Source: an uncultured Acidobacteriota bacterium (GTDB lineage: Bacteria > Acidobacteriota > UBA6911). From it: a stretch of DNA of 64,000 nt. The notes beneath the pieces were generated by a model. That model had not been told where the DNA came from, did no database searches, and saw only the letters and a program-made list of their open reading frames with translations. The stretch covers positions 251,911-315,910 of the forward strand of contig CAWJKZ010000015.1 of NCBI GenBank assembly GCA_963843575.1, read 5' to 3'. Below, piece by piece: positions 13,492-54,089 of this stretch. The position numbers were made by a program, and so were the translations under genes. How positions within the stretch are numbered: the stretch's first letter is position 1; every line of letters begins with the position of its first letter.

Positions 13492-13880
13492 GAACAAGTG
13501 GGTCCGGGCTTCAGCCCGGACGTCTTTTGATCTGATCTATGTGGCGACGGGCGCACGCTATAGCGACCGCAAACGCGTCCGGGCTGAAGAGGCTGTCCAA
13601 CGATTGAAGCACCCGCCCCGCCCGCACAACAAGTGGGTCCGGGCTTCAGCCCGGACGTCTTAGATCTGATCTAAGTGGTGGCGGGCGCACGTTACAGCGA
13701 CCGCAAACCGCGTCCGGGCTGAAGAGGCTGTCCAACGATTGAAGCACCCGCCCCGCCCGCACAACAAGTGGGTCCGGGCTTCAGCCCGGACGTCTTTAGA
13801 TCTGATCTATGTGGTGGCGGGCGCACGTTATAGCGACCGCAAAGCGCGTCCGGGCTGAAGCCCGGACCCACTTGTTGTGC
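13492..13880. repeat. REP/REPIN cluster: about 3 tandem units of ~135 bp
   Basis: AAGTGGGTCCGGGCTTCAGCCCGGAC at 13496, 13631, 13766; inverted copy at 13848-13873; half-REPs at 13577 and 13712 fused to GAGGCTGTCCAACGATTGA. Confidence 0.9.
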
Positions 13881-29877: not shown

Positions 29878-31317
29878 GTGGCGGAGGGAGGAGTTTCACT
29901 CGAACAGGCGAGGGCGCGGCCGTCGGACCCGGCGGCCATCTGCTCGTGATCTGCCCCACCGCACGGGACCGGAAGCATTTCTCCAGGCCGGAAATCCGGG
30001 ACAAGTATGACCTGGAATTCCGGGGAACGGACGAAGCGACGCGCGCTCCGGGCTTCGACGCGGTGCGGTTCTTACGGGAGACGGTCTGCGAGCTCCGCCG
30101 CCGGAGCGGCGAGTTCCAGGGGGTCGTGGGCATAGACGATTTTCCCGCATGTCTGCTCGCGGCTCTCTCCGGAGCCGCCCTCGGCTTCTCCACCCCGTCG
30201 TTCGAGTCCCTGTTCCTGTGCCAGCACAAGTACTACTCGCGCCTGCGGCAACTTGAAGCCGCTCCGGAGGCCACCCCGCAATTTGCCGTCGTCGAGCTCG
30301 AGCGGCCGCCGGCGCCGGCCGACATGCTGCTCCCCTTCCCGGTGTTCGTCAAACCCGTGAAGTCCTACCTCTCCATCCTGGCGCGGCGCCTCGACACGCC
30401 CGAGGATTTGTCCCTCACTCGACTCGAGGCGATGCGGCGCCTCGGCCCGGTGGCCCGTATGCTCGACGCGCTCGTCGGGGCATCGCCGCTCGCCGGGAAG
30501 TACCCCGTTTCGGCTTCATCCCTGATCCTGGAAGAGATCCTCTCCGGCCGGCAAGTCACCCTGGACGGTTACGCTCACCGGGCAGAGGTTGTGCCCCTCG
30601 GGGTCGTGGACTCCGTCTTCTACCCCGGGACCCTGTCGTTCGAGCGCTTCGATTACCCGTCCCGCCTCCCGCGCAGCGTGCTGGAGCGCATGGGCCGCAT
30701 CGCCGAGAAAGTCGTCCGGCACATCGGGCTCGACCGGACTTTTTTCAACATCGAATTTTTCTACGATCGGGAATTGGACTCGATCCGAATCATCGAAATC
30801 AATGGACGCATGGCATCGCAGTTCGCCCCCTTGTACCGCATGCTGCGCGGCATCGACATGTATGCCATGCAGCTGGAACTGAGCCTCGGGACGGGACCCC
30901 GGATGCCGCGGCGTCTGGTCTGCCGGGCTGGAGTCCAACGGCGTCGCGTCGAGCTTCGTCCTGCGACGCTTCGAGGACGGCCGCGTCACCCGCGCCCCCT
31001 CGCCGGAAGATCTCGAATGTCTGGCCGCGAGATTCCCGGGTAGTTTCGTAGAAGTGCTGGTTAAGGAAGGGGAACGGCTCTCGGACGAGTTGCAGGATGA
31101 CGAGAGCTACCGTTTTGCGCTCGTGAACCTCTGCGCCGGCACCTGGGTCGAACTTCAGCGGACGTTCGACGAGGTGGCCGCGACTGCTCCATTTCAAGTT
31201 CGAGCCGTGCGCGTGACGCGGCGGGCGCGCGGCACCGCGCCCGAATCCCCCGCACTCTGGGCCGCAAAGATCCCGATCCCGCCGCCCGGATTTGCGGTAT
31301 CCTGCCCCACATCATGA
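29878..31317 (+). CDS. ATP-grasp domain protein (frameshifted; start uncertain)
   Basis: CQHKYYSR, FPVFVKPVKS, LEEILSGRQVTLDG, FNIEFF, IIEINGRMASQF. After a frameshift near 30920 the frame continues SSFVLRRFEDG...DESYRFALVNL to the stop at 31317. Confidence 0.8.
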
Positions 31318-32451
31318 AATACTCGACAGACCCTCACGTAAGACTGGCGAAGCATCTCGACGACCTGCCCGGGGGATTCCCCCCGACGGACAGCGGTGTC
31401 GAGTTACGTATCCTGCGCAGGCTCTTCTCCCCCGACGAGGCCGAACTGGCGCTGCATGTCAGCCTCATACCTGAGGAGGCGCGCGTCATCGCCCGGCGGG
31501 CGGGGCTGGGCCTGAATGAAGCCGGCCTGCGGCTGTCGGCGATGGGGCGCAAGGGGCTCATCTTTGAGCTGACACAAGGGTCGGGACCCACCCAATACGC
31601 TGCCGCCCAGTTCGTGATCGGGATCTGGGAGTTTCACCTCAACGACCTCGATCCCGAGCTGATCCGCGACTTCAACGAGTACCTGCCCACCCTGGCCGGC
31701 GAAGCCCTGAAGTTCCCACAACTGCGCACCATCCCGGTCAACCGCAGCCTCGCGCCCCAGCTGACGGTCCTTTCGTACGAGAAGGCGGAAGCGTTGGTCG
31801 CGAGGGCGCAAGAAACTGCTCGTAGCCCCCTGCATCTGCCGACGCGAGCGGCGCATGGCGGGGGAGGGCTGCAGCGCCCCCGAGGAAGCCTGCCTCGTGT
31901 TTGACGCGGGGGCCGACCTGTTCGAGCGCAACGGCTTGGGGCGGTTCATCGACCGGCGCGAGGCGCTCGACATCCTCGGGCGTGCGGACGACGCGGGATT
32001 GGTGCTTCAACCCGGGAACAGCCAGGCCTCGATGAACATATGCTGTTGCTGCGGGTGCTGCTGCGGCGTGCTGCGGAGCATCAAGAAGTACCCCAAACCC
32101 GCGTCGCTGGTTTCGTCACCGTTTGTGGCCGAGTATTCGGCGGATTCATGCAGCGGCTGCGGCACTTGCACGAACCGCTGCCAGATGGACGCGCTGCGGC
32201 TGGAGGCGGGGAAGGTCGAGCTCATTCGCGAGCGCTGCATCGGCTGCGGCCTCTGCGTTTCCACCTGCCCGACCGATTCGCTGGTGCTCGTGCGCAAACC
32301 CGCGTCGGAACAGCCGAAGGTGCCCAAGGACGGGATCCGGGCCGTGATCGAGCTGGGCCGGTCGCGCGGCAAACTCAGTCCCGCCGGCCTGGCCCTGATG
32401 GTCGTGAAATCGAAAGTGGACCGACTGCGCGCCCTCCGCCTGCGGCAATGA
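31314..32451 (+). CDS. 4Fe-4S dicluster protein with N-terminal HTH-like region (frameshift near 31815)
   Basis: LDDLPGGFP N-terminus; PCICR; ICCCCGCCCG; CSGCGTCTNRC and CIGCGLCVSTC ferredoxin motifs. Confidence 0.85.
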
Positions 32452-32460
32452 TGCGTAAAC

Positions 32461-32703
32461 AAGTGGGTCCGGGCTTCAGCCCGGACGCCGTTTGCGGTCG
32501 CTATCGAGCGCAACTGTTGCTGAATAGGGCAGACCTAAAGACGTCCGGGCTGAAGAGGCTGTCCAACGGTTGAACCACCCGCTCTGCCCGTAAGACAAGT
32601 GGGTCCGGGCTTCAGCCCGGACGTCTTTTGCAGTAGCTGTAAAGTGCATCTGTCACGATATGCAACGGCTTTAAAAGCGTCCGGGCTGAAGCCCGGACCC
32701 ACT
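32461..32703. repeat. REP/REPIN cluster
   Basis: REP+ at 32461 and 32597; half REP at 32543-32554 fused to GAGGCTGTCCAACGGTTGA (32555-32573); inverted REP at 32679-32703. Confidence 0.9.
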
Positions 32704-32724
32704 GAAGCACGAGGGGAAACAAGG

Positions 32725-33684
32725 ATGAGGGATGTACGGGTCGCCAGCGTGCAGTTTGAGAGCGCTGCGGGAGACAAGCAGGCGAATTTCGAGAAGGTGG
32801 AACGGTTTGCCCGCGAGGCGGCCGGCAAGGGTGCCGCCATGGTGGTATTCCCCGAATGCTGTCTGACCGGGTACTGGTTCATGCGACACCTGACGGTGCC
32901 GCAACTGGCGCAGCTTGCCGAATCTGTGCCGGAAGGCCCGAGCTGCGCGAGGTTGCGCGCCATCGCCGTGCGGCAACGCATCAGCGTCGGGGCCGGTCTT
33001 CTCGAATCTACGAGCGTAGGTGTGTTCCACAACACCTACGTGGTGGCCATGCCCGACGGCACGGTCGTGCGGCACCGAAAACTGCACGCGTTCGAGCACC
33101 CCGCGATTCACCCCGGGGCTGAGTACACGGTCTTCGACACGCCGCACGGTTTCCGAGCCGGCCTGCTCATATGCTACGACGTCAACATCGTCGAGAATGT
33201 CCGGATTGCCGCGCTGCGCGGCGCAGAAGTCCTGCTGGCGCCGCACCAAACCGGTGGCTGCCGGACACGAAACCCGCACCTGATGGGGGTAATCGATCGC
33301 TCCCTGTGGGAGAACCGCCGCGACGACCCCGGGGCGATCGAGCAGGAGCTGCGGGGAGACAAGGGCAGGGGGTGGCTGATGCGCTGGCTCCCGAGCCGCG
33401 CGCACGACAACGGCCTCTTCCTGGTCTTCAGCAACGGCGTCGGGATCGACGACGACGAGGTCCGGACCGGCAACGCGATGATCCTGGATCCCGTACGGCC
33501 GGATCCTGGCCGAGATCTGGGAAAGCCGGCGACGACATGGTGGTCGCGGACCTCGACGCCGCGCTGCTGGAACAGGCCACCGGCCGGCTCTGGCTGCGCG
33601 CCCGGCGACCCGATCTCTACGGCGAGCTGGCCGGTAGCGACCGGCCTCGAGCGCGATACCCACCAGCTCAAGTTCGAGGAATAG
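32725..33684 (+). CDS. Nitrilase family / carbon-nitrogen hydrolase (local frameshifts near the C-terminus)
   Basis: MRDVRVASVQF, VFPECC, HRKLH, ICYD, SRAHDNG, RARRPDLYG. Confidence 0.9.
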   Translation: MRDVRVASVQFESAAGDKQANFEKVERFAREAAGKGAAMVVFPECCLTGYWFMRHLTVPQLAQLAESVPEGPSCARLRAIAVRQRISVGAGLLESTSVGVFHNTYVVAMPDGTVVRHRKLHAFEHPAIHPGAEYTVFDTPHGFRAGLLICYDVNIVENVRIAALRGAEVLLAPHQTGGCRTRNPHLMGVIDRSLWENRRDDPGAIEQELRGDKGRGWLMRWLPSRAHDNGLFLVFSNGVGIDDDEVRTGNAMILDPVRPDPGRDLGKPATTWWSRTSTPRCWNRPPAGSGCAPGDPISTASWPVATGLERDTHQLKFEE

Positions 33685-33734: not shown

Positions 33735-35634
33735 TCACACCTTGTCGGCGGGTATGACCAGGACCGGACGATCCGCCCGCGCCGCCACGTCGAGCATCAC
33801 CTCGTTGTGCTCCAGGAAGGATTTCAGACGAGGGCTGTAGCTTCCGATCACGATCAGGTCGTGCTCGGCCGCCTGCTCCAGTATGCCGGCGGCCGGCGTC
33901 GTGGCGCGTCGGACGAGCGCGTTGGCTTCGATATCGACGGCTCGCATGCTCGCCACCGCCCGGTCGAGGTGCTGGCGCATCAACGTTTCGGTGTCGTTCT
34001 GCCCGACACTGGCGTGGAAGAGTGTCACCGACGCGCCGAGGCGCCGCGCAATCCTGCCCCCCTCGATCACGTTGCGCTTGCCGGGCTCGCCCACGGCGGT
34101 GCAGATCATCATCTTCTCGATCCTGACTTTCGTCCCCTTGATCAGCAGCACCGGGACATCCGCGTGCTGCAGCACCGAGATCACGGTCGGGCCCAACTGC
34201 CTGGTCTTGGCCCGTGACCTCCAGGCCCGGCACCTTGGCCATCCGGGCGGCAGCGCCGCCGTGACGGGGCGGCAGCGCCAGCATCACCATTTCGTAGAGC
34301 GACTCGGACCAGCTCGGCCGCCATCTGCTCGGTGGGATCGCCGTAGCGCGCGTGCCACTGGGCGCTGCGCAGCGCCGATTCCCTTTGCGATCGCAGCGAA
34401 CCAGCCCGGAGGGCCCCCGCCCGATTCGGGGGCGGGCGCGATCCCGAGCACCGTCACCGAGGCCTGCAGCCGTTCCGCGAAGTGGCAGGCCACCTCCAGC
34501 GATGCGGGGTCCTCGCCCGCCGGGTGGTACAGCACACGGCGCGCGGCCTTCTTCAGGATGGTCCAGCCGGACAGGGACGTCCACACGGGATCGCCGGTCA
34601 GCCTTGTATCGGGCGGCAACGTGGCGTCGACGAGCAGCCCTTCCTCGCCGAAAGCGAGGGCCGGAGCCACCTGGCGCGTTCCCGGCAGATGGGGGAGCCT
34701 GAGCCTGACGCGACGGCACGAACCGGCGAAGCTCTCTTCCACCAGGTTCCCCATGCCCAGGACAGGCGTGCCGGCGGGCGGAATCGGGATCCCGCAATCA
34801 CCTGCTCGGGGCGGACAAGGAGCAGGACCCTCGCCCCGTCTTCGTGGGGATTGTCCGGCGGTATGGGCAAGCCGCAAGGGATCCGAAGCGCGCCTCCCCT
34901 GCCTCGGCCCGCCCCACGATCAGGGTCCCGGCCCCGAGAAACGAGGCCGTGTAGAGCGTCGACGGGCAGCGGTACAGCTCTTCGGCAGATCCGACTTCAA
35001 TCAGCCGGCCGCGTTCGAGAACACCGATGCGGTCCGCCAGTTCGAATGCCTCGTCCTGATCGTGCGTCACCAGGATGGTGGTCACCCCGAGGCGCTGCTG
35101 GATTTCCTTCAGGTTCCTCCGGAGCTGGCCCCGTATCTTGACGTCGAGGGCACCAAACGGCTCGTCGAGCAGCAGGACCTTCGGCTTGTGTGCGAGCGCG
35201 CGGGCCAGGGCGATGCGCTGCTGCTGCCCGCCGGACAGCTGGTGAGCGTAGCGGTTGCCGAGGCCCGCCAGCCCTACCATGTCCAGGAGTTCCTCGCAGC
35301 GGAGTCTGCGCTCCCGCTTCGGGACCTTGCGAATCGCCAGGCTGAACTCGATGTTCTCGATCACGCTCATGTGCCTGAAGATCGAGTAGTTCTGGAAGAC
35401 GAACCCGGTCCCGCGCTCCTGGGGCGGCAAGGCCGTGACGTCGCGGCCGTGCAGCAGGATTCGGCCCTTCGTCGGCTCCGTCAAGCCCGCGATGATCCGC
35501 AGGATCGTGCTTTTTCCCCCTCCGCTCGGACCCAGCAGCACGAACAGTTCGCCATCCCGCACTTCCAGCGAGACGTTGTCGACGACCCAGAGGCTGCCGT
35601 AGGATTTGGCCACGTTCTCGATGACGATTGACAC
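33735..35634 (-). CDS. cysA: Sulfate/thiosulfate ABC transporter ATP-binding protein fused to tandem USP domains (frameshifted)
   Basis: Walker A GPSGGGKS, FQNY Q-loop, LSGGQQQR, LLLDEPFGALD, VTHDQDEA. C-terminal USP1 (RRVLYHPAG...AERLQASVTVLG...GDPTEQ...VLQHADVPVLLIK) and USP2 (MMICTAVGE...ARRLGASVTLFH...HDLIVIGS...ADRPVLVIP). Fusion inferred across frameshifts at about 34200-34870. Confidence 0.75.
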
Positions 35635-35685: not shown

Positions 35686-37136
35686 TCAGAAAGCCACTTG
35701 AATCCGGCTCAGCACCACGCCAAAACCGCGCTCCCCTTTCCGCGGCGCTCGCGCCGGGTCACCGAACCGCTCCCAGCCGAAATCGAGCATGTAGCGGACG
35801 TAGCGGTTGAGATACCAGTTCGGACCGAAGTATAACGTCTCGGCCCGGTTGTTTTTCACGCTTCCATCCGAGATCTGCAGGCTGGCATAGCGGACCTTCA
35901 GCTCCCACGCGCCGAAGCCGGGCCGAGCGCCGTCGCGGGTGAAAAGCTCGTGGCGCGGCACCACGGCCCCCGCCTCCGATTTGGTTTCCCCCGTCAAGAG
36001 CCAGGTGGCCTGGGCCATCCAGCCTTTGGCGACGACCCCGGGGAGATTCGCCCCGGCCGGGCCGAGGCCGTCGCGCCGCTGGTTGGTCTGATCGTATTCC
36101 GCGCGGATGGTAGCCGGGCCGAGGAGCCAGGTGAACTCGCCGTTGGCCCGGTTGTACCTGCCGTTCAGGGTATCGGGGGTAAAGAAAGAGGCGCTGCGGC
36201 TCTCCGTCTGACCGCGCACTCCCACGCCGCCGACGCTGCGGCCGCTCGTCCCGGCGCCGCCGAAAATCAACCCCCTGGCCCAGAACGATCCCGTGTGTTT
36301 CCACGGGGAGAAGCGCAGCCTCAGCGCGCTCTCCGGCGTGCCGTTGTTGTTGGGCGCGAGCAGCCCTTTGCCGTTGAACAGCCCGGCCTGGTACTCGAAC
36401 ACTCCCTTGCCGAATACCCCGGTTACCGCCATGCCCGGGCTGCGGCTCGGCGCGAGGTTGTTGACCAGCGAGCGTTCGACGAAGTCCTGGACGCTGTCGG
36501 AACGGAGTTCCTCCTGGCTGAACGGCATCTTGAACTGACCGAAACGGAACTGCAGCTGGTCGGCGCGTCGTATGTTGACGTAGAAATCGCGCAGGAGCGT
36601 GCTGCCGGTGTCGGCGAAGTCACCTTCGAGCTTGTATTCGTAATAGCGCTGCAGCCTCCCCTCCACGCTCAGACGGGCTCGCCTGACCAGGAAGGTGTTC
36701 GGCGGATGCTCGCCCGCCTGGTAGCCGCGGAAGTCGAGCTGGCCGTAACCCGCGATCTGGGTTTCGAAGCTGCCGTCCCCGTTCCGGATGAAGGCGTGGC
36801 TGTCGTTCCAGCCCGCGGATCCCTCGCGTTTCCCCTCGGGCTGCGACACGGCCCGGGGAGGTTCTGGCAGGCTGCCGCCAGCGGTTTGTTCCCCGTCTGA
36901 CCGGGTCGCGGCGGCGGAGGCGGGCACCGTGCGTTCGAGCGCGTCGATGCGCTTCTGCATCTCGGCGATCGCGCGTTGTTGTCGCTCGACCGTGCTTTGC
37001 AGTTGCTCGATCAAAGACACGCAGCGCCGGTCCGTCGACGCTAGCGCCCGCCGGCGTCCTGAGCCTGCGCCCGGCTGGCATGCGACAGAAGTAGAAAGAG
37101 GATTGCGGCCGTCAGCAGCAAAGTTCGCGAGTTCAA
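35686..37136 (-). CDS. OprO/OprP family anion-selective porin (frameshift after the signal peptide)
   Basis: AAAGGAG RBS and TTG start give signal MNSRTLLLTAAILFLLLSHASRAQA; coiled coil; FLVRRARL, GQFKMPFSQE, VERS, GAWELKVRY, GPNWYLN; C-terminal QVAF. Confidence 0.85.
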
Positions 37137-37209
37137 GCACTCTCCTTTCAGGACGCGGATGCGCGCGGATCCCCGCGGATCGACCTGGCGACAGGCCGGT
37201 CCGGCGTTT

Positions 37210-38067
37210 TCAAAGCCTTTCGGCACGCTTCCTGACGATCTCGATGGCCATGAGAAGGACGAAGGACAAGGCTGCGAGAGCGATGGCCATCGCGTAGGCG
37301 CCGGTGTAGTTGCGGTCGTCCAGCGAGCGCAGAATGTACAGGGTCGACGTTTCGGTGCTGCGGCTGACCCCGCCGCTCACGACCAGCACGGCGCCGATCT
37401 CGCCAAGGGCCCGGGCGAAGGTCAGCGAGATGCCGTACAGCAACCCCCAACGGATGGCAGGCAGGGTGACGCGGCGGAAAGTCTGCCACGAGCTGGCACC
37501 CAGGGTGCGGGCCGCATCCTCGTGATCCCGGCTCACCTGCTCCAGGACGGGCATCACTTCACGGACAACGAAGGGAAAAGAGATGAAAATCGTCGCCATC
37601 AGGATGCCCGGCCAGGCGAAGACGACCTTGATCCCCGTGCGTTTCAACACGGGATCGAACCAGCCGCCGGCGCCGAACAGCAGGATCAGCATGAAGCCCG
37701 CGATTACCGGGGAGACGGCGAAAGGCAGGTCGACGAGTCCATTGAGCAACCGTTTGCCGTGGAAATCGTCGCGCACGAGGACCCAGGCCACACACATCCC
37801 GAGGATGGTGTTGACGGCCACCGAGCCGAGGGCGATCAGCAGGGTCAGCTGAAACGAACTCGCCGCGTCATAGGATTTCAGTTCGCGCACGAAGGCCGGG
37901 AGGCCGCTGGACAGGGCACCCCAGAAGATTGCCGCCAGGGGCCCCAGCAGCAGCACCCCGGCATAAACTGCGGCCGTCGCGATCAGGGCGCCGCGGACGA
38001 GCGCCTGGCGCGAAACCTCCGGCCTCCGCCTCACGGCGGGCAGGTTCTCCGGCGTGCGCCCGTTCAT
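37210..38067 (-). CDS. cysW: Sulfate ABC transporter permease CysW
   Basis: LVDLPFAVSPVIAG, PFVVREVMPVL, EDAARTLGAS, ARALGEIGAVLVVSG; ATGA overlap with cysT. Confidence 0.9.
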   Translation of the reverse strand: MNGRTPENLPAVRRRPEVSRQALVRGALIATAAVYAGVLLLGPLAAIFWGALSSGLPAFVRELKSYDAASSFQLTLLIALGSVAVNTILGMCVAWVLVRDDFHGKRLLNGLVDLPFAVSPVIAGFMLILLFGAGGWFDPVLKRTGIKVVFAWPGILMATIFISFPFVVREVMPVLEQVSRDHEDAARTLGASSWQTFRRVTLPAIRWGLLYGISLTFARALGEIGAVLVVSGGVSRSTETSTLYILRSLDDRNYTGAYAMAIALAALSFVLLMAIEIVRKRAERL

Positions 38068-38900
38068 CCTTTCCTCCCCGCAACCCGCTGGAGGCGGTCG
38101 ACGGCCAGCATCAGGGCGAAAGACATGAGCAGCAGGACGACCGAGACGGCGCTCGCGCCCCGGGGGTTCTGCGACTCGATCTGGCCGTAGACGTATACCG
38201 GGGCCGTCAACGTTTTCATGGGGATGTTCCCCCCGACCACGACGATCGAGCCGAACTCGCCGAGCGCCCGCGCAAAGCTCAGGAGCGAACCGGTCAGCAT
38301 GGCCGGCCGGATCCAGGGGAAGACGATCCGCCGGAAGGTGGTCCACTGGGAGGCGCCGAGGGTCCAGGCCGCCTCCTCCTGCTGCCGCTCGGCTTCCATC
38401 AGGACCGGCTGAACCGCGCGCACGACAAACGGGTAGGTGACGACAAGCAGGGCGAGGATGATCCCAGGCGTGGCGAAAATGACCTGGATCCCGTGCCCGG
38501 CGAGCCACGCCCCCACGGTGCGTTGCGGGCCGTAAAGCGCCACGAGCATTACTCCTGTGACCATCGTGGGGATGGCAAACGGGACGTCGACCAGTCCGTT
38601 CAGCAGCACGCGCCCGGCAAACTCGTACCGCACGAGCACGAATGCCGTGAGGGTCCCCATGACGGTGTTGATCAGCGTGACGGCCAGCGCTGCCGCGACC
38701 GTCAGTCTGAGCGCGGCCCAGGCAGACGGTTCCGTCAGTTCGTTCCAGAACGCGTCGAGCCCCCCTTCCAGCCCCTTGTGGAAGACCGCGGCCAGGGGCA
38801 GGGCAATAATCAATCCCAGGTAGACGACCGCGGTGAAGCGCAATCCGAGGCGCGACGGGGAGGCTCCGCCCCGCCAGAGGTTTTCCGCCACAGCGCTCAC
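38064..38900 (-). CDS. cysT: Sulfate ABC transporter permease CysT
   Basis: VLVRYEFAG, DVPFAIPTMVTG, PFVVRAVQPVL, EEAAWTLGAS, ARALGEFGSIVVVGGNIP; GTGA overlap with sbp. Confidence 0.9.
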   Translation of the reverse strand: MSAVAENLWRGGASPSRLGLRFTAVVYLGLIIALPLAAVFHKGLEGGLDAFWNELTEPSAWAALRLTVAAALAVTLINTVMGTLTAFVLVRYEFAGRVLLNGLVDVPFAIPTMVTGVMLVALYGPQRTVGAWLAGHGIQVIFATPGIILALLVVTYPFVVRAVQPVLMEAERQQEEAAWTLGASQWTTFRRIVFPWIRPAMLTGSLLSFARALGEFGSIVVVGGNIPMKTLTAPVYVYGQIESQNPRGASAVSVVLLLMSFALMLAVDRLQRVAGRKG

Positions 38901-39976
38901 CGGGACCTCCGGATTTCCCCGACCGCCCTGCTGTATGCCCCGTCGGCCCCGTATATCTCCGTGCTCACCTGTTTCCATCCGCCGAGAAAATCGATCTTCC
39001 ACAGATCTTCCACGGGCGGATACAGGGCCTTGCTCTCCTCGGCGGCATTCGGATCGATGGGCCTCAGACCGTATTTCGCATAGATCCGCTGGGCCTCCAG
39101 GCTGCAAAGGAAATTGACGAAGTCCTCCGCGGCCTCACGGGTGCCGTGGTCGTCGACGTACTTGTCGATCAGCGCCACCGGGTTCTCGATCAGGATCGTC
39201 GAGCGCGGGATCGCGTATTCGTAGGTCTGACCCGCCTGCCGGCCGACGAGCACCTCGTTCTCGTAGGTGATGGCGACGTCGCCGACCCCCTTTTCGAAGT
39301 TGGTGATCGATTCGCGCGCTCCCTTGTCCAGGATGGAGACGTTGGCGAAGATACGTTTGAGGAGTTGCTGCGCCGCGGCGCGGTCGCCTTTCGGGGTGCC
39401 CGCGTAGCCGCGCAGGGCGGCACCGTAGATGGCGTTGATGTTCCACTGCGCGCCGCCCGAGGTCTTAGGGTCGGGCGTGAGGATGTTGAGGCCCGGCCGC
39501 GTGAGATCCGGCCAGTCAAGAATGTTGAGCGGGTTCCCCCGCCGGACCGCGATGACCACGATCGAGGTGCTCACCATGCCGCGCGACGGGTTCGCGCGCC
39601 AGTCGTGCGTGATCAGGCCGGCTTCCGCGATCCTGTCGATGTCGGCCTCGAGCGAGAGCGCGGCGATGTCGGCTTCGAATCCGGCGATGATCGCCCGGGA
39701 CTGCGCGCCACTCCCCTGGTAGGACTCCCGGAACTCGACGTCCTTTCCGGTCTTCCCCTTCCAGAACTTCTGGAAAGCCGGGATGATCGCCTTGCCGTAA
39801 GCCTCGCGCGGCGTCGTGTACCCTCCCAGGGTCAGGGTGACGGAGTCGCGACCCGTGGTGCGCGAACCCGAGCAGCCTGCAAACGCCATGGGGAGAATGA
39901 ACAGAAAGGCCATAACGGCCGGCCGCAGCCAGAGCAGAAAAGGCCTGGCGACGATGCGCCTGTACTTCTCGGTCAT
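38897..39976 (-). CDS. sbp: Sulfate ABC transporter substrate-binding protein (probable lipoprotein)
   Basis: SYQGSGAQSRAIIAGFEADIAAL, VRRGNP, TPDPKTSGGAQW, GDVAITYENE, ILIENPVA, FLGGW; lipobox-like FAGC. Confidence 0.9.
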   Translation of the reverse strand: MTEKYRRIVARPFLLWLRPAVMAFLFILPMAFAGCSGSRTTGRDSVTLTLGGYTTPREAYGKAIIPAFQKFWKGKTGKDVEFRESYQGSGAQSRAIIAGFEADIAALSLEADIDRIAEAGLITHDWRANPSRGMVSTSIVVIAVRRGNPLNILDWPDLTRPGLNILTPDPKTSGGAQWNINAIYGAALRGYAGTPKGDRAAAQQLLKRIFANVSILDKGARESITNFEKGVGDVAITYENEVLVGRQAGQTYEYAIPRSTILIENPVALIDKYVDDHGTREAAEDFVNFLCSLEAQRIYAKYGLRPIDPNAAEESKALYPPVEDLWKIDFLGGWKQVSTEIYGADGAYSRAVGEIRRSR

Positions 39977-40048
39977 GGAGGAGCCTTTCTCGCTGCGCTC
40001 CGCGCTGGGAACGCTCCTGTGACGAGTTGACCGGGATCCGCCTGCGGC

Positions 40049-40083
40049 AAAAAAAGGAGCACCGGGTGCCCCCGGGCTTCTCC
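40049..40083 (-). terminator. Intrinsic terminator in the riboswitch expression platform
   Basis: Minus strand GGAGAAGCCCGGG-GGCA-CCCGGTGCTCC-TTTTTTT, located between the aptamer and the sbp start. Confidence 0.7.
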
Positions 40084-40105
40084 TGAGGCTCGCGCGTCGC
40101 GAATG

Positions 40106-40256
40106 CCCTTCCCATGTGCCTGCGAGGTTAGCTGACGGACTCGGGCTGGAAGTACCCTACACAGCCGTTGGCTGCGATACGCCCCAGACTCTGCCTGAAT
40201 GCAGAGCGACGGTTCCCCCGCGTTGCTCGTCCTGCTGCGAGCAACTTCAGCAGACA
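40106..40256 (-). ncRNA. c-di-AMP riboswitch (ydaO/yuaA class)
   Basis: Minus strand GCTGAA-[hairpin GTTGCTCG..CGAGCAAC]-GCGGGGGAACC-[hairpin]-GGGGCGTATC-[hairpin]-GTAGGGTACTTCCAGCCCGAGTCCGTCAGCTAACCTCGCAGGC..GGGAAGG matches the ydaO-yuaA consensus blocks in order. Confidence 0.9.
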
Positions 40257-40265
40257 GCTGTCATG

Positions 40266-40294
40266 ATGCTAAACGGGGCAATCCGGTTTGTCAA
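40266..40294 (-). promoter_or_regulatory. sigma70 promoter of the riboswitch/sulfate ABC operon
   Basis: Minus strand TTGACA-N17-TAGCAT, ending a few nt before the aptamer. Confidence 0.75.
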
Positions 40295-40298
40295 CGAC

Positions 40299-40567
40299 AG
40301 TGGGCCCGGGCTGAATAGGCTGTCCAACGGTTGAACCACCCGCCCTGCCGCAAAACAAGTGGGTCCGGGCTTCAGCCCGGACGTCTTTTGATCTGATCTA
40401 TTTGGCGGCGGGCGCACGTTATAGCGACCGCAGACAGGGTCCGGGCTTCAGAGGCTGTCCAACGGTTGATTGTGAAGTGCGGCGCCGAGGCGCCGCACTC
40501 CAGATTAATTCAGTTCGTCCTGATTGAACGTCAACCGTTGGACAGCCTCTGAAGGCCGGACCCACTT
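40299..40567. repeat. REP/REPIN cluster containing a MITE
   Basis: Half REP at 40299-40315 + TAGGCTGTCCAACGGTTGA; REP+ at 40357-40382; split REP around 40451-40549. Confidence 0.9.
40451..40549. mobile_element. 99-bp MITE-like element with 19-bp perfect terminal inverted repeats, inserted in a REP loop
   Basis: GAGGCTGTCCAACGGTTGA ... TCAACCGTTGGACAGCCTC, flanked by GGGTCCGGGCTTCA and TGAAGGCCGGACCCACTT; internal hairpin AGTGCGGCGCC-GA-GGCGCCGCACT. Confidence 0.75.
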
Positions 40568-40591: not shown

Positions 40592-42964
40592 CTAATAGGC
40601 CGAGGTGGGCGCCGGACTGCCAATCCTGGAGTATTCGACGCGGGCCTGCAGCAGGATCGGGAGGTCCGGGTCCGCCGCCTGCAACAGGGCGAACAGACGC
40701 TGATAGGACTCCTTGCTCTTGGCCAGCTCTCCCGAGAGCCGCCTCGCCTTTGAGACCCCCAGTTGCGCCAGGATGTAGATTGGAGAGAACGGATCCTCCC
40801 CGCTCCTGCGCTCGAGCACTTTCCGGAACTCCCCTTCGGCTTTCGAGCCTGCACCCTGCGCAAGGTAAGCCTCGCCGGCGAGGTAAGGCGGCCACAGCGC
40901 TGCCGACAGTTTCCCCCCACCGATCGTGTTGAGGATCGCCAGGGCTTCGGTGGGATCTCCGCTGCGGATCTGGACCATGGCCCGGATCAACGGGACGTGG
41001 ACAGACTGGATCATGGTATGGTCCGGATACGACTTGGCAAGCTGTTCGGCCAGGGCCCGGGCCCTCGCCGCCTCGCCGCACAGGGCCTCGGCCTGGGCAT
41101 TTCTCACCATGACCAGCCAGCTCCGGGTGTCGTGGATCGCCCCGAGGTACTCGCGCGCCTTTGGGCAATTGCCGAACAGGGCCTCGGTGCGTGCGGCGTC
41201 GGCGACGAGCGCGGCGGCCATTTCAGGCATATTCCGGTTTTGCGCAACCTCGATCGCGCGCTGCTGGAAGGCGCGCGCCTCGCGCAGATGGCCGCGCGAG
41301 GCGGCGGCGGCCGCCTGCAGGGCAAGCATCGAGTATTCATCGGGTTGGCCGGCAGCCTTTTCAGCCTGCGCCGTCATGCCGGCACGGTCGCCTTCGAGGA
41401 ACGCGACCGTGTAGGCGAGGGCGCGCAGATCGCGGTTGTCCAGGCCCTGCGCGCGCGCCTGCGCGATGGTCTCTTTCGCCTCCGGCAGCCGGTTCAGCCG
41501 CAGATAGACGCAGGCCAGCTGCGGATAGGCGTTTGAGTGCCGGCTGATTCGGATCGCCGCGCGGAAGCAATCCACGGCCTTCTCCAGCTGGCCGGCATCC
41601 GCGTAGCGTCCCCCGAGCGTGTTGTGCACCGGTGCGTTGCGGGGGTAGATCGCCCGCATCAGCTCCAGCACCTCGATGGCCTTGTTGGCGTCTCCGGTGG
41701 CGAACGTGTGGTAGATCGCCTCGATCGACAACCGCTCGTATTCGCTGACCCGGTCCCGCAGGGAATAGGCTCTGCTCGCGCTTTGCGCGGCGAGGTCGGG
41801 CCTTCCCGTGTAGCTGTAACACCAGGCGATGTCGTCGTAGGCGCTGGCAAAGTTCGGGTCGGACTCCAGCGCGTGCTCGTAGTAGGGGAGCGCTTCCGCC
41901 ATGTGCCCGGACAACAGCTGCCTTCTCCCAAGCGAATAGGCCTTGAACGCTTCAAGGGACGCCGTGGTGGCCTGCTCGAGCGGGACGTCGAACTTCTCGA
42001 TCGAAGCGACGGATTCCCCCAGCCCCTTCCGGATATTGGTCGCAACCCTGCCGAGAGTCCGCAGCACTTCTTCCTTGGTGACCGCTTCGAACTGTTCCCG
42101 GACGATCACATCCCCGGTTTGCGCGTTGAGCGCTTCGAGTGAGATCACGTACTCCCGCCCGAGCTTCGAGATCGAACCGGCCAGCAGGGCCTTGATGCCG
42201 CGGCGCAGGCAGATTTCGCGTCCCGCTTCCCGCGTCATTGGTTCGTTCGGGGAACGTCCCATATACGCGAGAGTCTCGCGGGCACGCTCGTCCGAGTAAA
42301 TGTTCAGGAACGGTGTCTGCGCGAGGTGCACCGCCAGGGCCTGCTTCAGCGTGTCGTCGAAGACAGGGTCCCCGGTCGTGTTGACGAAGTCGGCCAGGAG
42401 AATGGCATCGGCCTCGGTAAGAGCCGGCCGCCGCCACTGCAGGTAGAACACGAGCAGCGCGATTGCGGCGAGCGTAGCCGCCCCGGTGGTCAGATACGTC
42501 CGCCGGTTGCTGGCGCGGGGGCTGACGGCCGGCGGCTCGGGCCTCTCTTCGGCAGGGCCAACCTGCACGACCGGCGCAATGAGCCGGTAGCCGCGCCGGG
42601 GGATGGTCTGAATGAACTGCGGCTGCCTGGCCTGGTCCCCGAAGGACTTGCGCAGCTCGGAAACCGAGTACGTCAACACGTCTTCCGTGACGAACGTCCC
42701 CGGCCAGACCGCGCGCAGGATCTCCTGCCGTGGCATCACGCGCCCCGGGTTCCCGGCGAGAAAGACGAGCACCTCCATGACCTTCGGTTCTATCTGGATC
42801 TTCTTGTCGCGGCAGGAAATAAGGTTAAGGTCGCGCTCGACCAGCCACTCTCCGATTCGAAAGGCGTCGCCCACTGGTTTGCTCCTCGGAAATTCGACCT
42901 CTCGCGATAGGGGGGCATGATGGGTCGAGAAAAGTTCACGAAGGCACAAGGGGGACAGGACCAT
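40592..42964 (-). CDS. Membrane-anchored winged-helix (OmpR/CadC-type) regulator with extracytoplasmic TPR domain
   Basis: IEPKVMEVLVFLA...VWPGTFVTEDVLTYSVSELRKSFGD...IQTIPRRGYRL; one TM; ILLADFVNTTGDPVFDDTL; TTASLEAFKAY; TPRs. Exact start uncertain. Confidence 0.9.
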   Translation of the reverse strand: MVLSPLCLRELFSTHHAPLSREVEFPRSKPVGDAFRIGEWLVERDLNLISCRDKKIQIEPKVMEVLVFLAGNPGRVMPRQEILRAVWPGTFVTEDVLTYSVSELRKSFGDQARQPQFIQTIPRRGYRLIAPVVQVGPAEERPEPPAVSPRASNRRTYLTTGAATLAAIALLVFYLQWRRPALTEADAILLADFVNTTGDPVFDDTLKQALAVHLAQTPFLNIYSDERARETLAYMGRSPNEPMTREAGREICLRRGIKALLAGSISKLGREYVISLEALNAQTGDVIVREQFEAVTKEEVLRTLGRVATNIRKGLGESVASIEKFDVPLEQATTASLEAFKAYSLGRRQLLSGHMAEALPYYEHALESDPNFASAYDDIAWCYSYTGRPDLAAQSASRAYSLRDRVSEYERLSIEAIYHTFATGDANKAIEVLELMRAIYPRNAPVHNTLGGRYADAGQLEKAVDCFRAAIRISRHSNAYPQLACVYLRLNRLPEAKETIAQARAQGLDNRDLRALAYTVAFLEGDRAGMTAQAEKAAGQPDEYSMLALQAAAAASRGHLREARAFQQRAIEVAQNRNMPEMAAALVADAARTEALFGNCPKAREYLGAIHDTRSWLVMVRNAQAEALCGEAARARALAEQLAKSYPDHTMIQSVHVPLIRAMVQIRSGDPTEALAILNTIGGGKLSAALWPPYLAGEAYLAQGAGSKAEGEFRKVLERRSGEDPFSPIYILAQLGVSKARRLSGELAKSKESYQRLFALLQAADPDLPILLQARVEYSRIGSPAPTSAY

Positions 42965-44120: not shown

Positions 44121-44207
44121 AAGTGGGTCCGGGCTTCAGCCCGGACGCAGTTTGCGGTCGCTATCGAGTCGATCAAAAGACGTCCGGGCTGAAGCCCGGA
44201 CCCACTT
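44121..44207. repeat. REPIN (inverted REP doublet)
   Basis: AAGTGGGTCCGGGCTTCAGCCCGGAC at 44121-44146 and its reverse complement at 44182-44207. Confidence 0.9.
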
Positions 44208-44233: not shown

Positions 44234-44265
44234 AAAAAAAGGGCGCAGGCATTTGCCTGCGCCCT
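44234..44265 (-). terminator. Intrinsic terminator after TonB-dependent receptor 1
   Basis: Minus strand AGGGCGCAGGCA-AA-TGCCTGCGCCCT followed by a T-run. Confidence 0.85.
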
Positions 44266-44285
44266 GGCTGATGGGTTGAACGAGA

Positions 44286-47200
44286 CTAGAAGGTCATGCG
44301 CAACCCGAACCGGAAAGATCTCGGGTCGTTTGCGTCGCTGGTGAGCTTCCCGAAGTTCGAGCTGTTGACATTGCCGTTCGGGTTGCCGAAGTGCGGCGTG
44401 TTGGTGATGTTGAAGGACTCCGCCCGGAATTCCATCCCGAGCTTCTCCGTGAGGGCGAACTTGCGGAACAGGCTGAAGTCCATGTTCACGCGGGCCGGCC
44501 CGCGCATGGTGTTCCGGCCCACGTTGCCGAACCGGACTCCGTGACCCGCGCGAAGGCGCTGGTGTCGAAGTACGGGGTATCGCCGAGACCACCCAGAATT
44601 GCGATTTCGGGCTTGATCTGGTCCGGCGTCTGCGCGTTGCCCGGCATGTTCAACGAGGAGCCGGAAGCGCTCATCGTAAACTGCCGTCCCTGGTAGGCGC
44701 TGAAGATGCCGTTGATCTGCCAGCCGCCCAGGACCGCCTTGGCGGCACCGCTCTGCGCCCACTTCTTGCCGGTGCCCATGGGGAGTTCGTACACATAGGC
44801 CATCTGCAACATGTGGGGGATGTTGAACGCCGCAGAGGCGCGGTTGCGAGACATTGCGCTCCACGCGCCCCAGATAGGTTCCGTCCAATCACTATACTCG
44901 GCCTCGCTGATGGCGTGCGAGTAAGTGTAGGCACCCTTGAGGAACAGGCCGCTCACAAAGCGCCGGTTGAGAGTGGCTTGCATTGAGTGGTAGACACTGC
45001 CATATCGGCCATCCCACAACATGGTATCTCCGGTGCGGCCGAACTTGGCGTAGAGTGGTCGCCCATCATCGCCGGCGCCCGGGATTTGCCCGGCGTTGAT
45101 TTGCTGAAACCCAAAGCCATTTACGGAGTGCGACCCTACATAGCCAAGGGACGTTACCATCTCGCCCGGCAGTTTATGCTCGACGATGAGGTTAAACGAT
45201 TGGATGTAACCACGCTTCAACTCTTTATTGGCCTCGGGGTAACCCATGATCGCCGCCAGCGGCAGCTGCTGTCTGCCCTTGCTGCTGTCGGGGCAGCAGA
45301 TCGACAGAATACCGACATTGGGGCCCAGCGGTGCGTTCGGAATGCCCGCCGCCACGTAATTGGGGTCCGTGGTGATGGTTTGGTAGCCGTTGATCGCCGA
45401 ATAGGTCCCGACAATCGTCAGTGGGTAGAAACCACGCAAGGCCTGGGCACCCCAGGGATGCGAGTGGTACGTGATGCCGTAACCGCCTCGTATGACCGTG
45501 TTGCTGGCCGCTTGATAGGCGAACCCGAAACGGGGGGCAAAGAGCTTCTTGCTGTAGCCCACGCCGTTGTCCTGCGGCACACCCGGCCAGCCGCCGACCA
45601 GGACATCGTTGGTCGTCGGATCATACGATTCGATGCCCATGCCCTGCGAACGCCTTCGATTGGGGTAAAGCTCCCAGCGCAACCCCAGGGTGAGGGTCAG
45701 CTTGGGAGTAACGCGCCAGCGGTCGCGGACGTAGAGAGCCCAAGTGTTCTCATGGCTGTCCATTTTGATGTACTGGCTGCTCTTCCCGGTGTAATCCGAT
45801 GCACCAAGCAGAAACGACGCCACGCTGTTCCAGTCGTTCTCGAACGACGGGGTGCCGTCCTGGAACCCGACCGCGGCATCGAGAGCATCGGGGTTCAGAG
45901 CCGTAGTGCCCGGAGCGAAATCAAACGCACCGCGCGGACCTTCCCCCAGCTCCGGCTGCCAGTGGTTCATCAGGTGGTGCATCAAGTCGAGGCCAAACCG
46001 GATGTCGTGATTGCCCTTGATCTTGTTCAGGTTGAGGTTGAAGGTGTACGACTGGTCGTTGCGTTGAAGCGGGTTCCAGCCTTCCGCATTGCCCAGGTTT
46101 GTATAACCCGAGAAGTAAAAGGCCGGCATGCCGCTTTCACGCTTGTCGGGGCCGTTGGTCCCGGGAATCCCCAAGACCTCCGAGCCGAAGTTGGTGCCGA
46201 GGTCGGGGGAGTCCACCTGCTGGCCAAATCGCGTCCAGCCGAGCGTTGCGTCAACCAGGAAGGTGGGCGAGACGGTATACGTCGTCCCGATGGTCGCTAT
46301 CTGCACCTGGGTTAGACCCTCACCGAGGCCGCCGCCAGTGCACGAGCCGGGCCCGCCGGCCTGGCCCAGGCTGAAACCACAGGTAACCTTCGCCTTCATG
46401 ATGCTGTACTTGACCCAGACCTGGTTTTTCTCAGTCCGGTTCCAGTTGACCTTGACGTCGAAGTTGTTGCGGTTCATGCGCTGGCCGCCGGAGGTGTAAT
46501 AGTTGTTCGTATCCCCGGGAAGGCTCGGATTGGGCACCAGTGACAACAGCTTCATCATGGGTGCGTTAAAGCGAGACGTGGGGATGACGTTGACCTTTCC
46601 TCCGCTGGAGAAGACGCTGCGGCCCGTGCCGTCCAGGTTGCCGGAAAAGGGGTCAAAGACCATCCCTTCCCGCAGTGCTGTCGAGCCGCCTTCGGTGGTG
46701 GGGATCATGATGGGGTTGCCGTTGGCATCGAGGATCCCGGACCCCAACATCCGGCTGAAATCGCCGGTTCGGTAGTCGGTAGGGAAGACGGAGGCGACGG
46801 CGCCATAGCCCACCCGTTCGAAGGTGCCTTCCCAGTCGGCGAAGAAGAACAGCTTGTTCTTCACGATGGGTCCGCCGATGCTGCCCCCGTCGATGTTTCG
46901 GATGCTGTTGGGCTTCTTCTGCTGCGTTGCGATTCTCCTGCCACCGGTTGGCACGCAAGGCGCTGTTGTCGTGCATGCCGAAAAGGGTGCCGTGGAATTC
47001 GTTGGTTCCGGATTTCGTCACCACGGTGACCGCGGCGCCGCCCGTAATGCCCTGCTCGGCATCGAAGTTGTTGGTGGAGATGTTGACCGTCTCGACGCTT
47101 TCCACGGGCGGGACGTACACCGCGTGGTGAGGCATCGTGACCAGGATATCGGCCGCACCGTCCAGGCGGGTGTTGTTGGCACCGCGGTCCTGGCCGTTGA

Positions 47201-47772
47201 CGTTCGTGGTCAAGGAACGCCCGGGTGTGTCGGTGACGGCGTTCTGAAGGTCGGCCGGCGTGGCGCCGGGAACCAGGTTGATGAGGCTCTGGTAGTTGCG
47301 GTAGCCGCCGAGCGGCAGGTTCTCAATCGATTTCGATTCCAGATTCACCGCAACGTCGGCCTTCGACGTCTGGAGGACTGCCGCGCTGGCCTCTACCGTG
47401 ACGGTGTCGGTGACTTGCCCTACTTGCAGGTTCACAGGGACGCGCGTGACCGTGTTGATGGAGACGACTATTCCCTTCTCCACGTAATTGCGAAACCCGG
47501 TCATCGAGACGCTAAGGTCGTACGTGCCTTCGAGCACGTTCGAGAATGGAGTAGTTTCCGGCGACGTCGCTGGTGCCTTCTCGAGCCTGTCCGGTCTCGG
47601 CGTTGGTGATCGTGACCGTGGCCCCGGGCACCACTGCCCCGGTCTGGTCCTGAATGGTTCCCACAACAGATCCGTAAAGAACCTGGGCATTCAAACGAGG
47701 AACGAACATGGGCGCGAGACACAACGCGCCCACGAGGAACGCCAGCAGCACTGATCTGGCTCTTTGAAACAT
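44286..47772 (-). CDS. TonB-dependent receptor (Oar-like, carboxypeptidase-regulatory N-domain); frameshifted
   Basis: GGAGG RBS; signal + QVLYGSVVGTIQDQTGAVVPGATVTITN; plug IENLPLGGYRNY...VTKSGTNEFHG; GGPIVKNKLFFF; DRWRVTPKLTLTLGLRWE; C-terminal RFGLRMTF. Frameshifts near 47545, 46925 and 44535. Confidence 0.9.
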
Positions 47773-47921
47773 GCGCACACCTCCGAAGAGTCACAGGAAC
47801 TCGTTTGCGTACTTGCTGTGGTGAGATGCCCCGACGACAGAAAGTCCATGAGGTCCACCCTCATCCACAACTCACGAACAAATCCCGCGCCAGATGCCAG
47901 GGAAGGCAAATGATGACCGCC

Positions 47922-48059: not shown

Positions 48060-48096
48060 AAAAAAATCGGGCGCAGGCAGCGCTGCCTGCGCCCGG
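48060..48096 (-). terminator. Intrinsic terminator after TonB-dependent receptor 2
   Basis: Minus strand CGGGCGCAGGCAG-CG-CTGCCTGCGCCCG then A and a T-run; homologous to the terminator at 44234. Confidence 0.85.
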
Positions 48097-48116
48097 TCGA
48101 AGGGACAAAAAGAGGA

Positions 48117-53982: not shown

Positions 53983-54089
53983 AAGTGAGTCTGGGCTTCA
54001 GCCCGGACGTGTTTGCGGTCGCTATAACATGCGCCCGTCGCCGCCTAGATCAGATCAAAAGACGTCCGGGCTGAAGCCCGGACCCACTT
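53983..54089. repeat. REPIN (inverted REP doublet)
   Basis: Degenerate REP+ at 53983-54008 and REP- at 54064-54089. The spacer is the reverse complement of the spacer type at 13522-13576. Confidence 0.9.

Follow-up and report, generated by a model that had tools for sequence, protein, structure and literature searches.

Cyclic di-adenosine monophosphate (c-di-AMP) controls the uptake of potassium and osmolytes, often at the level of the mRNA and of the protein both. In the ATP-binding cassette (ABC) importers of the OpuA/OpuC type, CBS domains of the ATPase bind c-di-AMP. The kdp genes of B. thuringiensis can reportedly be under a c-di-AMP riboswitch (PMC6488665), a likeness to the operon described here. 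In the universal stress protein (USP) domain of KdpD, the structure-derived c-di-AMP motif is (A/G/C)xSxSx2N(Y/F), the first glycine of the classical nucleotide site is kept with the rest of Walker A absent, and the beta1-alpha1 loop contacts c-di-AMP, as stated in the excerpt of PMC8214093. Here we describe a gene, designated cysA::USP-USP (cysA::USP2), in a 64,000-nucleotide stretch of DNA (the window) from an uncultured Acidobacteriota bacterium of lineage UBA6911 (GenBank assembly GCA_963843575.1, contig CAWJKZ010000015.1, positions 251,911 to 315,910). The gene joins the ATPase of a sulfate-type ABC importer to two USP domains, and it closes an operon that is headed by a c-di-AMP riboswitch. 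All positions below are those of the window.

Three-frame translation of the minus strand from 35634 to 33735 gave an ABC ATPase followed by a CysA-type regulatory beta-domain, a first USP unit (USP1) and a second one (USP2). The parts of the gene were assigned as follows.

33735..35634, minus strand: whole cysA::USP-USP gene, a single open reading frame (ORF) of about 630 aa once 7 extra bases are removed
34930..35634, minus strand: ABC nucleotide-binding domain, residues ~1-235; Pfam ABC_tran, with Walker A GPSGGGKST, signature LSGGQQQR and Walker B LLLDEP readable
34572..34926, minus strand: C-terminal regulatory beta-domain (CysA_C_terminal / TOBE-like), residues ~237-353, with 4 extra bases inside
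34140..34541, minus strand: USP1, residues ~365-496, with 3 extra bases inside; two Usp stretches are seen in orthologues
33738..34115, minus strand: USP2, residues ~505-630, with a conserved C-T-A-x-G-E-P-G-K loop; Pfam Usp E 8.2e-07 in the window
34877, 34868, 34790, 34783, 34388, 34308 and 34214, no strand assigned: 7 frame-breaking extra single bases, found by blastn against the same-genus genome G001 and spanning 34214..34877

The reading path across the frames is 2>1>0>1>2>0. The ABC core starts at 35634 in frame 2 and matches ABC_tran (PF00005) with an E-value of 1.3e-36 and 126.7 bits, compared to a cut-off of 25. After the core a short stretch, LPIPPDNPHEDGARVLLLVRPEQV, lies in frame 1, and frame 0 then carries the remaining regulatory domain with no stop before USP1 (..SGWTILKKAARRVLYHPAGED..). 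Two short pieces of USP1 follow in frames 1 and 2 (YGDPTEQ.. and SLYEMVMLAL..), and the end of USP1 and the whole of USP2 are again in frame 0, up to the stop at 33735. The junction of the regulatory domain and USP1 lies within a single uninterrupted ORF (34284..34877), and the last ORF (33735..34196) was recognised as Usp by Pfam with 30.1 bits against a cut-off of 24. A contig from an unrelated soil run spans 34522-34755 with 4 mismatches and 0 gaps. The preliminary description of this DNA had read the ATPase as continuing through several frameshifts into two USP units, and the translation and the Pfam matches bear this out.

When the junction ORF was compared with 41 related genomes, nine stop-free open frames of 625-662 aa were found, including that of G001; a weak match in G040 was rejected, as it is not a fused gene of this kind. 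A further 18 of 400 other sampled genomes of the phylum matched at E <= 1e-10, among them the unpublished genome G063, which was also counted in the 151-genome tally of fusion and CysT given below and enters no other result. In total, 23 full-length ORFs with Walker A and both USP units were obtained from 22 published genomes, and in all 23 the junction is in frame, free of stops and conserved at the protein level. One locus (L028, in G349) was dropped for lack of a Walker A ORF. Another (L004, in G026) contributed to neither the motif count nor the tree: in the G026 assembly (L004/L035) the N-terminal part of the fused gene, its first ~100 residues, is shifted into another frame, probably by a further assembly error. 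Intact orthologues showed ABC_tran, weak matches to CysA_C_terminal/TOBE_2 and two Usp stretches of up to 66.5 bits, the regulatory domain scoring 28.7 bits with PF17850 (cut-off 29.7) and 19.1 with PF08402, TOBE_2 (cut-off 21). The single ORF of about 630 aa that had been proposed thus exists intact in relatives, and the proposed ABC + Usp + Usp architecture holds by Pfam and by fold comparison, with the regulatory domain sitting between the ATPase and the USP pair.

An exhaustive profile search of public databases returned 242 cluster representatives at E <= 1e-30, and PF00005 and PF00582 occurred together in 68 of 75 database hits. The hits come from Blastocatellia, Acidobacteriota, Thermoanaerobaculia and Chloroflexi/Anaerolineae, and their names were assigned automatically, for instance 'sulfate/thiosulfate transport system ATP-binding protein', '...nucleotide-binding universal stress UspA family protein' and 'ATP-binding cassette domain-containing protein'. 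In the open-access literature we found no paper on an ABC-USP fusion. The novelty claimed at the outset is to be qualified, as the databases already contain the proteins under those names. These results indicate that the fused gene of an ATPase and a tandem USP is real and conserved, and that it is a previously undescribed regulatory architecture of ABC importers, though one present in databases.

Two other explanations of the interrupted reading were weighed. The continuous frame could be an illusion of high-GC sequence, which yields long spurious open frames (G+C in the window is 60-70%), with cysA and a tandem-USP gene being in fact separate; 105 of the best 150 of the 242 representatives are indeed shorter than 540 aa. 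But most of these short representatives begin in the middle of the profile and are therefore taken as fragments, the other 45 of the best 150 reach at least 540 aa, 40 of them with Walker A, and the junction is intact in every full-length ORF, so that separate genes are hardly credible. Alternatively, the frameshifts could be real and the gene a very recent pseudogene in the source organism, since the window as given holds 7 frame breaks. The G001 copy is one intact 630-aa ORF with 87% nucleotide identity by blastn. Besides the 7 extra bases, a balanced indel pair was found at 34132/34124, and just two or three of the 7 extend a homopolymer. Over the syntenic 30 kb compared with G001, 14 unbalanced +1 insertions were clustered in 30.8-34.9 kb, splitting four adjacent genes on both strands whose G001 versions are intact (478, 395, 330 and 630 aa). 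Of the three split neighbours (29946-33684), one covers 29946-31043 and extends beyond, one is Cys-rich (31314-32451) and one is a CN_hydrolase gene (32599-33684). No unbalanced +1 insertion occurred in the remainder of the operon (35.7-39.9 kb). The location of the breaks within a local +1 cluster that also splits three neighbours argues for an assembly error over a pseudogene, as does the fact that only +1 insertions are involved. Moreover, substitutions relative to G001 at codon positions 1/2/3 numbered 34/17/168, and 21/16/100 after the first shift, a strong third-position bias that continues past the first break; with the extra bases ignored, 584 of 630 codons specify the same residue as in G001. 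The operon is also the only one with a sulfate binding protein in the assembly (27 contigs), in which no SulP permease was found at 88% marker completeness. On the other side, the sequencing runs found contain at most 0.10 of the sampled words, and the four that were aligned cover 0 of the 7 insertion sites and are thus silent on the errors. The pseudogene keeps a small probability because no read set was found over the break sites, and the frame breaks are most likely consensus errors of the assembly in a local stretch of poor consensus, judging from the comparison with G001.

The AlphaFold model of the full-length protein (pLDDT 85.4, pTM 0.78) has four domains: the nucleotide-binding domain at 1-235, an all-beta domain at 237-353, USP1 at 365-496, built of alternating beta and alpha elements, and USP2 at 505-626. 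The tail modelled by itself had a pLDDT of 85.2. In a Foldseek search with the tail, the top matches were the tandem USPs Rv2623, UspE/YdaA and TTHA0350 (E 1e-11 to 1e-10, TM by target 0.58-0.73). A phmmer search of PDB sequences with the USP tail alone gave no match, and a profile search was needed; with the profile, TTHA0350 matched across both units with an E-value of 8.1e-11, followed by TeaD and MJ0577, and the first 70 profile positions matched the regulatory domains of GlcV (1oxs) and ModC (3d31) at E 0.002-0.003. The USP2 score, the two Usp stretches of the orthologues, the Foldseek matches and the profile match to TTHA0350 together identify the tail as a tandem USP (PF00582).

The genes upstream of cysA::USP2 on the same strand, and the elements in front of them, are listed here in the order of transcription.

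40266..40294, minus strand: sigma-70-like promoter TTGACA-17-TAGCAT, a pattern match only (consensus scan, 10/12 matches)
40102..40262, minus strand: c-di-AMP riboswitch aptamer (ydaO/RF00379), 68.6 bits against a gathering threshold of 38, E 8.3e-14, full model 1-134
40045..40073, minus strand: terminator-like hairpin and T-run, stem GGGGGCACCCGGTGCTCCT then TTTTTTGCCG; putative expression platform
38897..39976, minus strand: sulfate-type periplasmic binding protein gene (sbp), TIGR00971 229.9 bits against 155.5; Pfam SBP_bac_11
38064..38900, minus strand: cysT permease gene, TIGR02139 287.7 bits against 246.1
37210..38070, minus strand: cysW permease gene, TIGR00969 299.9 bits against 240; TIGR02140 equivalog 298.5, under its cut-off of 329.1
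35686..37140, minus strand: outer-membrane anion porin gene (Porin_O_P), Pfam PF07396 E 3.4e-41

The fused gene closes an operon of the order sbp-cysT-cysW-(porin)-cysA::USP2. In 16 of the 21 loci examined, genes for the binding protein and permeases immediately precede the fused one; the porin gene has the same position in G001, G009 and G087 and is found ahead of sbp in G079, G199 and G119. At the level of the operon, the binding protein (the only TIGR00971 match in the assembly), CysT and the TIGR00969 permease are all above curated cut-offs for sulfate ABC transport. The ATPase speaks less clearly for this substrate, as the G001 orthologue falls under the CysA cut-offs (TIGR00968 316.1 against 342.75; CysA equivalog NF008105 285 against 502), and the substrate assignment therefore rests on the binding protein and the permeases. 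By these scores the ATPase is CysA-like and is not a curated CysA member. The promoter-like site was the only one in the 7.1 kb scanned, where shuffled sequences gave a mean of 0.7.

Directly upstream of the operon promoter, a 790-aa regulator with a winged helix (Trans_reg_C) and TPR repeats is encoded at 40592-42964 on the minus strand. A copy of the 20-nt palindrome GTCCGGGCTTCAGCCCGGAC also lies just upstream of this promoter. The palindrome has 12 sites in intergenic clusters (13502-13867, 32467-32698, 40363-40382, 44127-44201 and 53989-54083), with 0.02 expected by chance, and looks REP-like.

The riboswitch, which the preliminary description had mentioned, proved to be real, with a full-length covariance-model match to RF00379, and it is the only one in the source assembly. 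The terminator-like hairpin lies 29 nt past the aptamer, and the hairpin with its T-run lies 79 nt before the sbp start; we infer from this layout that the riboswitch would act as an OFF switch. RF00379 was present in 11 of the 25 genomes that match the fused gene. In seven of these (G000, G001, G033, G037, G252, G087 and G119) it shares contig and strand with the fused gene, at a distance of 2.9-4.8 kb on the upstream side, and in five of the seven it is the sole copy of the genome. The G035 operon is divided between two contig ends (riboswitch-sbp-cysT-cysW and cysW-end...cysA::USP2), and in G039 riboswitch-sbp stands at a contig end; G039 and G375 were left unscored for the link because of such ends. 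Besides the source genome, 6-8 genomes thus have the riboswitch in front of this operon. In the tree of 23 fused proteins, the riboswitch-led operons fall into two separate well-supported clades and are mixed with riboswitch-less ones.

An even sample of 151 genomes was then considered, in which the riboswitch was found in 21 genomes with 26 hits. Three of the 26 hits precede sulfate-type operons, and all three of these operons encode the fused ATPase. CysT was above its cut-off in 22 genomes and the fusion was found in nine, with both in eight; among the 14 CysT genomes without the fusion, three had the riboswitch, in no case on the sulfate operon. The link of riboswitch and sulfate operon recurs in at least four taxonomic families, only with a USP-tailed ATPase. 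Several observations weigh against a tight tie to c-di-AMP. A c-di-AMP riboswitch is missing altogether from as many as 14 of the 25 genomes matching the fused gene, and five riboswitch-less fused operons had no other Rfam leader either. In G009 the operon has no riboswitch, with two copies elsewhere in the genome, and G119 has two fused operons (L049 and L050), of which only the porin-first one on contig C230 is preceded by the riboswitch. Diadenylate cyclase (DAC) was present in 22 of the 25 holders of the fusion, compared to a base rate of 131 of 151 in the phylum, and its co-occurrence is uninformative because this base rate is high. Of the two co-occurrence checks that had been proposed, the one with ydaO riboswitches thus gave a divided answer, the riboswitch-led sulfate operons of the sample all being fused and most fusion genomes lacking the riboswitch, and the one with DAC genes found the expected enzyme and gained nothing. 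The riboswitch-fusion association is a lead and not a statistical test, since the numbers are small and the genomes related. By these genomic comparisons, the riboswitch link of the fused operon to c-di-AMP is real but partial. No paper joining c-di-AMP with CysA or sulfate ABC transport was found in the open-access literature.

The other genes behind riboswitches in this sample were assigned by a Pfam scan of the following ORFs (22 of 25; L070 and L077, shorter than 100 aa, and the window sbp were omitted, and L063 had no ORF after the riboswitch at a contig end). AA_permease_2 followed in seven hits, TonB-type outer-membrane proteins in three, NAD_binding_9 in two, and K_trans, Peptidase_M28, Oxidored_molyb and Band_7 in one each, with four ORFs free of any Pfam family. 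The TonB-type genes (CarboxypepD_reg + Plug; L055, L061 and L062) and the NAD_binding_9 flavoprotein genes (L059 and L079) are unusual members for a c-di-AMP regulon. The second riboswitch of G087 (L056, G087:C24:40405-43556) precedes a sulfite-oxidase-like gene (Oxidored_molyb + Mo-co_dimer), another sulfur-oxyanion gene.

Conservation in the tail was counted in an alignment of 54 full-length family members. Only G430 is invariant in USP1, compared to E514, K517, A527, L554 and G595 in USP2, where C509, T510, G513, P515, G516, G524 and R528 are nearly invariant and the loop GEP[GS]K, which follows strand 1, occurs in all but one (53 of 54). The motif G-x2-G-x9-G-(S/T), canonical for ATP-binding USPs of the UspFG class and expected in the beta4-alpha4 region, was found in none of the 54, even with a spacer of 8-10: G595 is kept and G598 is present in most sequences, and G-(S/T) is replaced by (D/N)-D. 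G595 is the counterpart of the first glycine, which makes the ribose contact in ATP-binding USPs and in KdpD-USP (for the latter, according to the excerpt of PMC8214093). By these features USP2 looks like a non-classical nucleotide pocket, and since the ribose glycine and the GEPGK loop are present and the triphosphate motif is not, its ligand is probably an adenine nucleotide other than classically bound ATP. Some features tell against c-di-AMP as this ligand. The structure-derived KdpD motif occurs in 0 of 54 sequences, the SxS-x20-FTAxY pattern is likewise not present, as the preliminary description had already remarked, and in the source genus even the second glycine of G-x2-G is lost (GSYS).

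The scheme that we favour, and hold to be fairly probable as a whole, is that the ATPase of a sulfate-type importer carries a tandem USP sensor, that its operon stands behind a c-di-AMP riboswitch, and that the breaks in the gene are assembly errors. One gene would then encode the ATPase subunit with its regulatory domain extended by the tandem USP, in an operon of the order promoter, c-di-AMP riboswitch, terminator, sbp, cysT, cysW, anion porin and cysA::USP2. At the RNA level, high c-di-AMP would fold the aptamer and let the terminator form, leaving the operon untranscribed; this OFF control is inferred because the riboswitch class and a terminator are present. At the protein level, the USP tandem is predicted to hang beneath the regulatory domain, which in related importers holds the two ATPase subunits apart. 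From there it may act as an allosteric sensor that throttles ATP hydrolysis, with the sensor site most likely in USP2. Of the dual control suggested in the preliminary description, the riboswitch part is supported, and allosteric control of the transporter by c-di-AMP is a plausible conjecture. As the ligand of the tail we rank c-di-AMP first, tentatively, ahead of AMP/ADP or the sulfate-activation products adenosine phosphosulfate (APS) and phosphoadenosine phosphosulfate (PAPS), which jointly deserve a similarly guarded credence. That USP2 would bind c-di-AMP in a pocket of a new type, with the GEPGK loop in place of the KdpD SxS, is a conjecture of the same modest standing.

Two other functions of the tail compete with the sensing of c-di-AMP. 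The tail may sense nucleotides of energy metabolism or of the sulfur pathway (AMP/ADP/ATP, cAMP, or APS/PAPS for feedback by the end product), so that riboswitch and tail carry different signals. In the related importers ModC and MetN, the substrate or product of the importer exerts inhibition through the same C-terminal end of the ATPase, and USP belongs to one nucleotide-binding superfamily with PAPS reductase and ATP sulfurylase. In structure the tail comes nearest to ATP-binding tandem USPs (TTHA0350 with ATP, Rv2623) and to TeaD and MJ0577, and the fusion is kept in the 14 genomes that have no c-di-AMP riboswitch. However, the missing triphosphate motif speaks against ATP, and the exclusive pairing of riboswitch-led sulfate operons with the fusion in the sample (three of three) hints at a common signal for RNA and protein; different signals are a possibility we would not bet on. 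The tandem could also bind no small molecule at all and serve as a scaffold for dimerisation or docking of the UspA/UspE type, or as a phosphorylation target, and in this way adjust how the transporter assembles or how stable it is. UspE/YdaA are among the best fold matches, USP1 is nearly devoid of invariant pocket residues, and, as the excerpt of PMC5549992 describes, Rv2623 reaches its target, the ABC transporter Rv1747, by way of a phosphothreonine-FHA contact. A pure scaffold would need none of the invariant residues E514, K517 and G595, yet these sit at classical nucleotide-pocket elements, and this function is the less likely of the two.

In this soil acidobacterium, the only sulfate ABC importer that could be recognised has its operon headed by a c-di-AMP riboswitch. 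If USP2 were a c-di-AMP pocket, sulfate-type anion uptake in Acidobacteriota would be under c-di-AMP twice, through the riboswitch and through an allosteric brake, and this would be the first link of c-di-AMP to sulfur or anion uptake and the first USP-gated ABC transporter. Depending on the ligand, anion and sulfur uptake may join the c-di-AMP regulon, a second type of c-di-AMP-binding USP may be added, or a USP may turn out to serve end-product feedback. Even if the tail binds nothing, a previously undescribed architecture of ABC importer regulation is documented.

Elsewhere in the window, 44234-47827 and 48061-50615 both align to one stretch of G001, and single-base indels are numerous in these alignments. 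With their long ORFs on the minus strand, of 822 and 887 aa, the two are probably paralogous neighbours.

Among described systems, the CysA/ModC/MalK/GlcV ATPases (PDB 1z47, 3d31 and 1oxs) share the layout of the first 350 residues, and the operon partners here are of the sulfate type. These ATPases end after the beta-domain at about 350 aa, whereas the fused family adds about 270 residues of tandem USP. KdpD of Staphylococcus aureus, whose USP domain is reported to be a c-di-AMP receptor (PMC4686210), resembles the fused protein in using the USP fold as a built-in sensor of a transport-related protein, and also in having lost the triphosphate part of Walker A with the first glycine kept, its ligand being contacted by the beta1-alpha1 loop (all as given in the excerpt of PMC8214093). 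It differs in that a single USP sits in a histidine kinase concerned with K+, compared to a tandem on an ABC ATPase for a sulfate-type anion, and in that GEPGK stands here in place of its motif. Rv2623 of Mycobacterium tuberculosis (PDB 3cis) is the best structural match of the tail and, like the function proposed here, a tandem USP that negatively regulates an ABC transporter, Rv1747; by the excerpted text of PMC5549992 it is a separate, ATP-binding protein whose action on an exporter takes place in trans, by phosphothreonine-FHA contact. In cysA::USP2 the tandem is instead joined in cis to the ATPase of an importer and lacks the ATP motif. TeaD of Halomonas elongata (PDB 3hgm; profile match E 1.3e-05) is likewise a USP encoded in the uptake operon that it regulates, that of the TRAP transporter TeaABC, but it is a separate, single-domain, ATP-binding protein and its transporter is not of the ABC class. 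The cation-chloride cotransporters (KCC, NKCC and NCC) also carry a tandem USP-like cytoplasmic regulatory tail on an ion transporter (Foldseek E 8e-08 to 1e-05); being eukaryotic secondary transporters with 10-14% identity, they are related in fold only. A parallel in design is offered by OpuA/OpuC, in which an ABC importer ATPase likewise has an appended C-terminal nucleotide-sensing module and uptake is controlled by a second messenger, as is predicted here. In OpuA/OpuC the module is of the CBS fold, the cargo is compatible solutes and binding has been shown, while in cysA::USP2 the module is a tandem USP that is predicted to bind a nucleotide, and the predicted cargo is sulfate.

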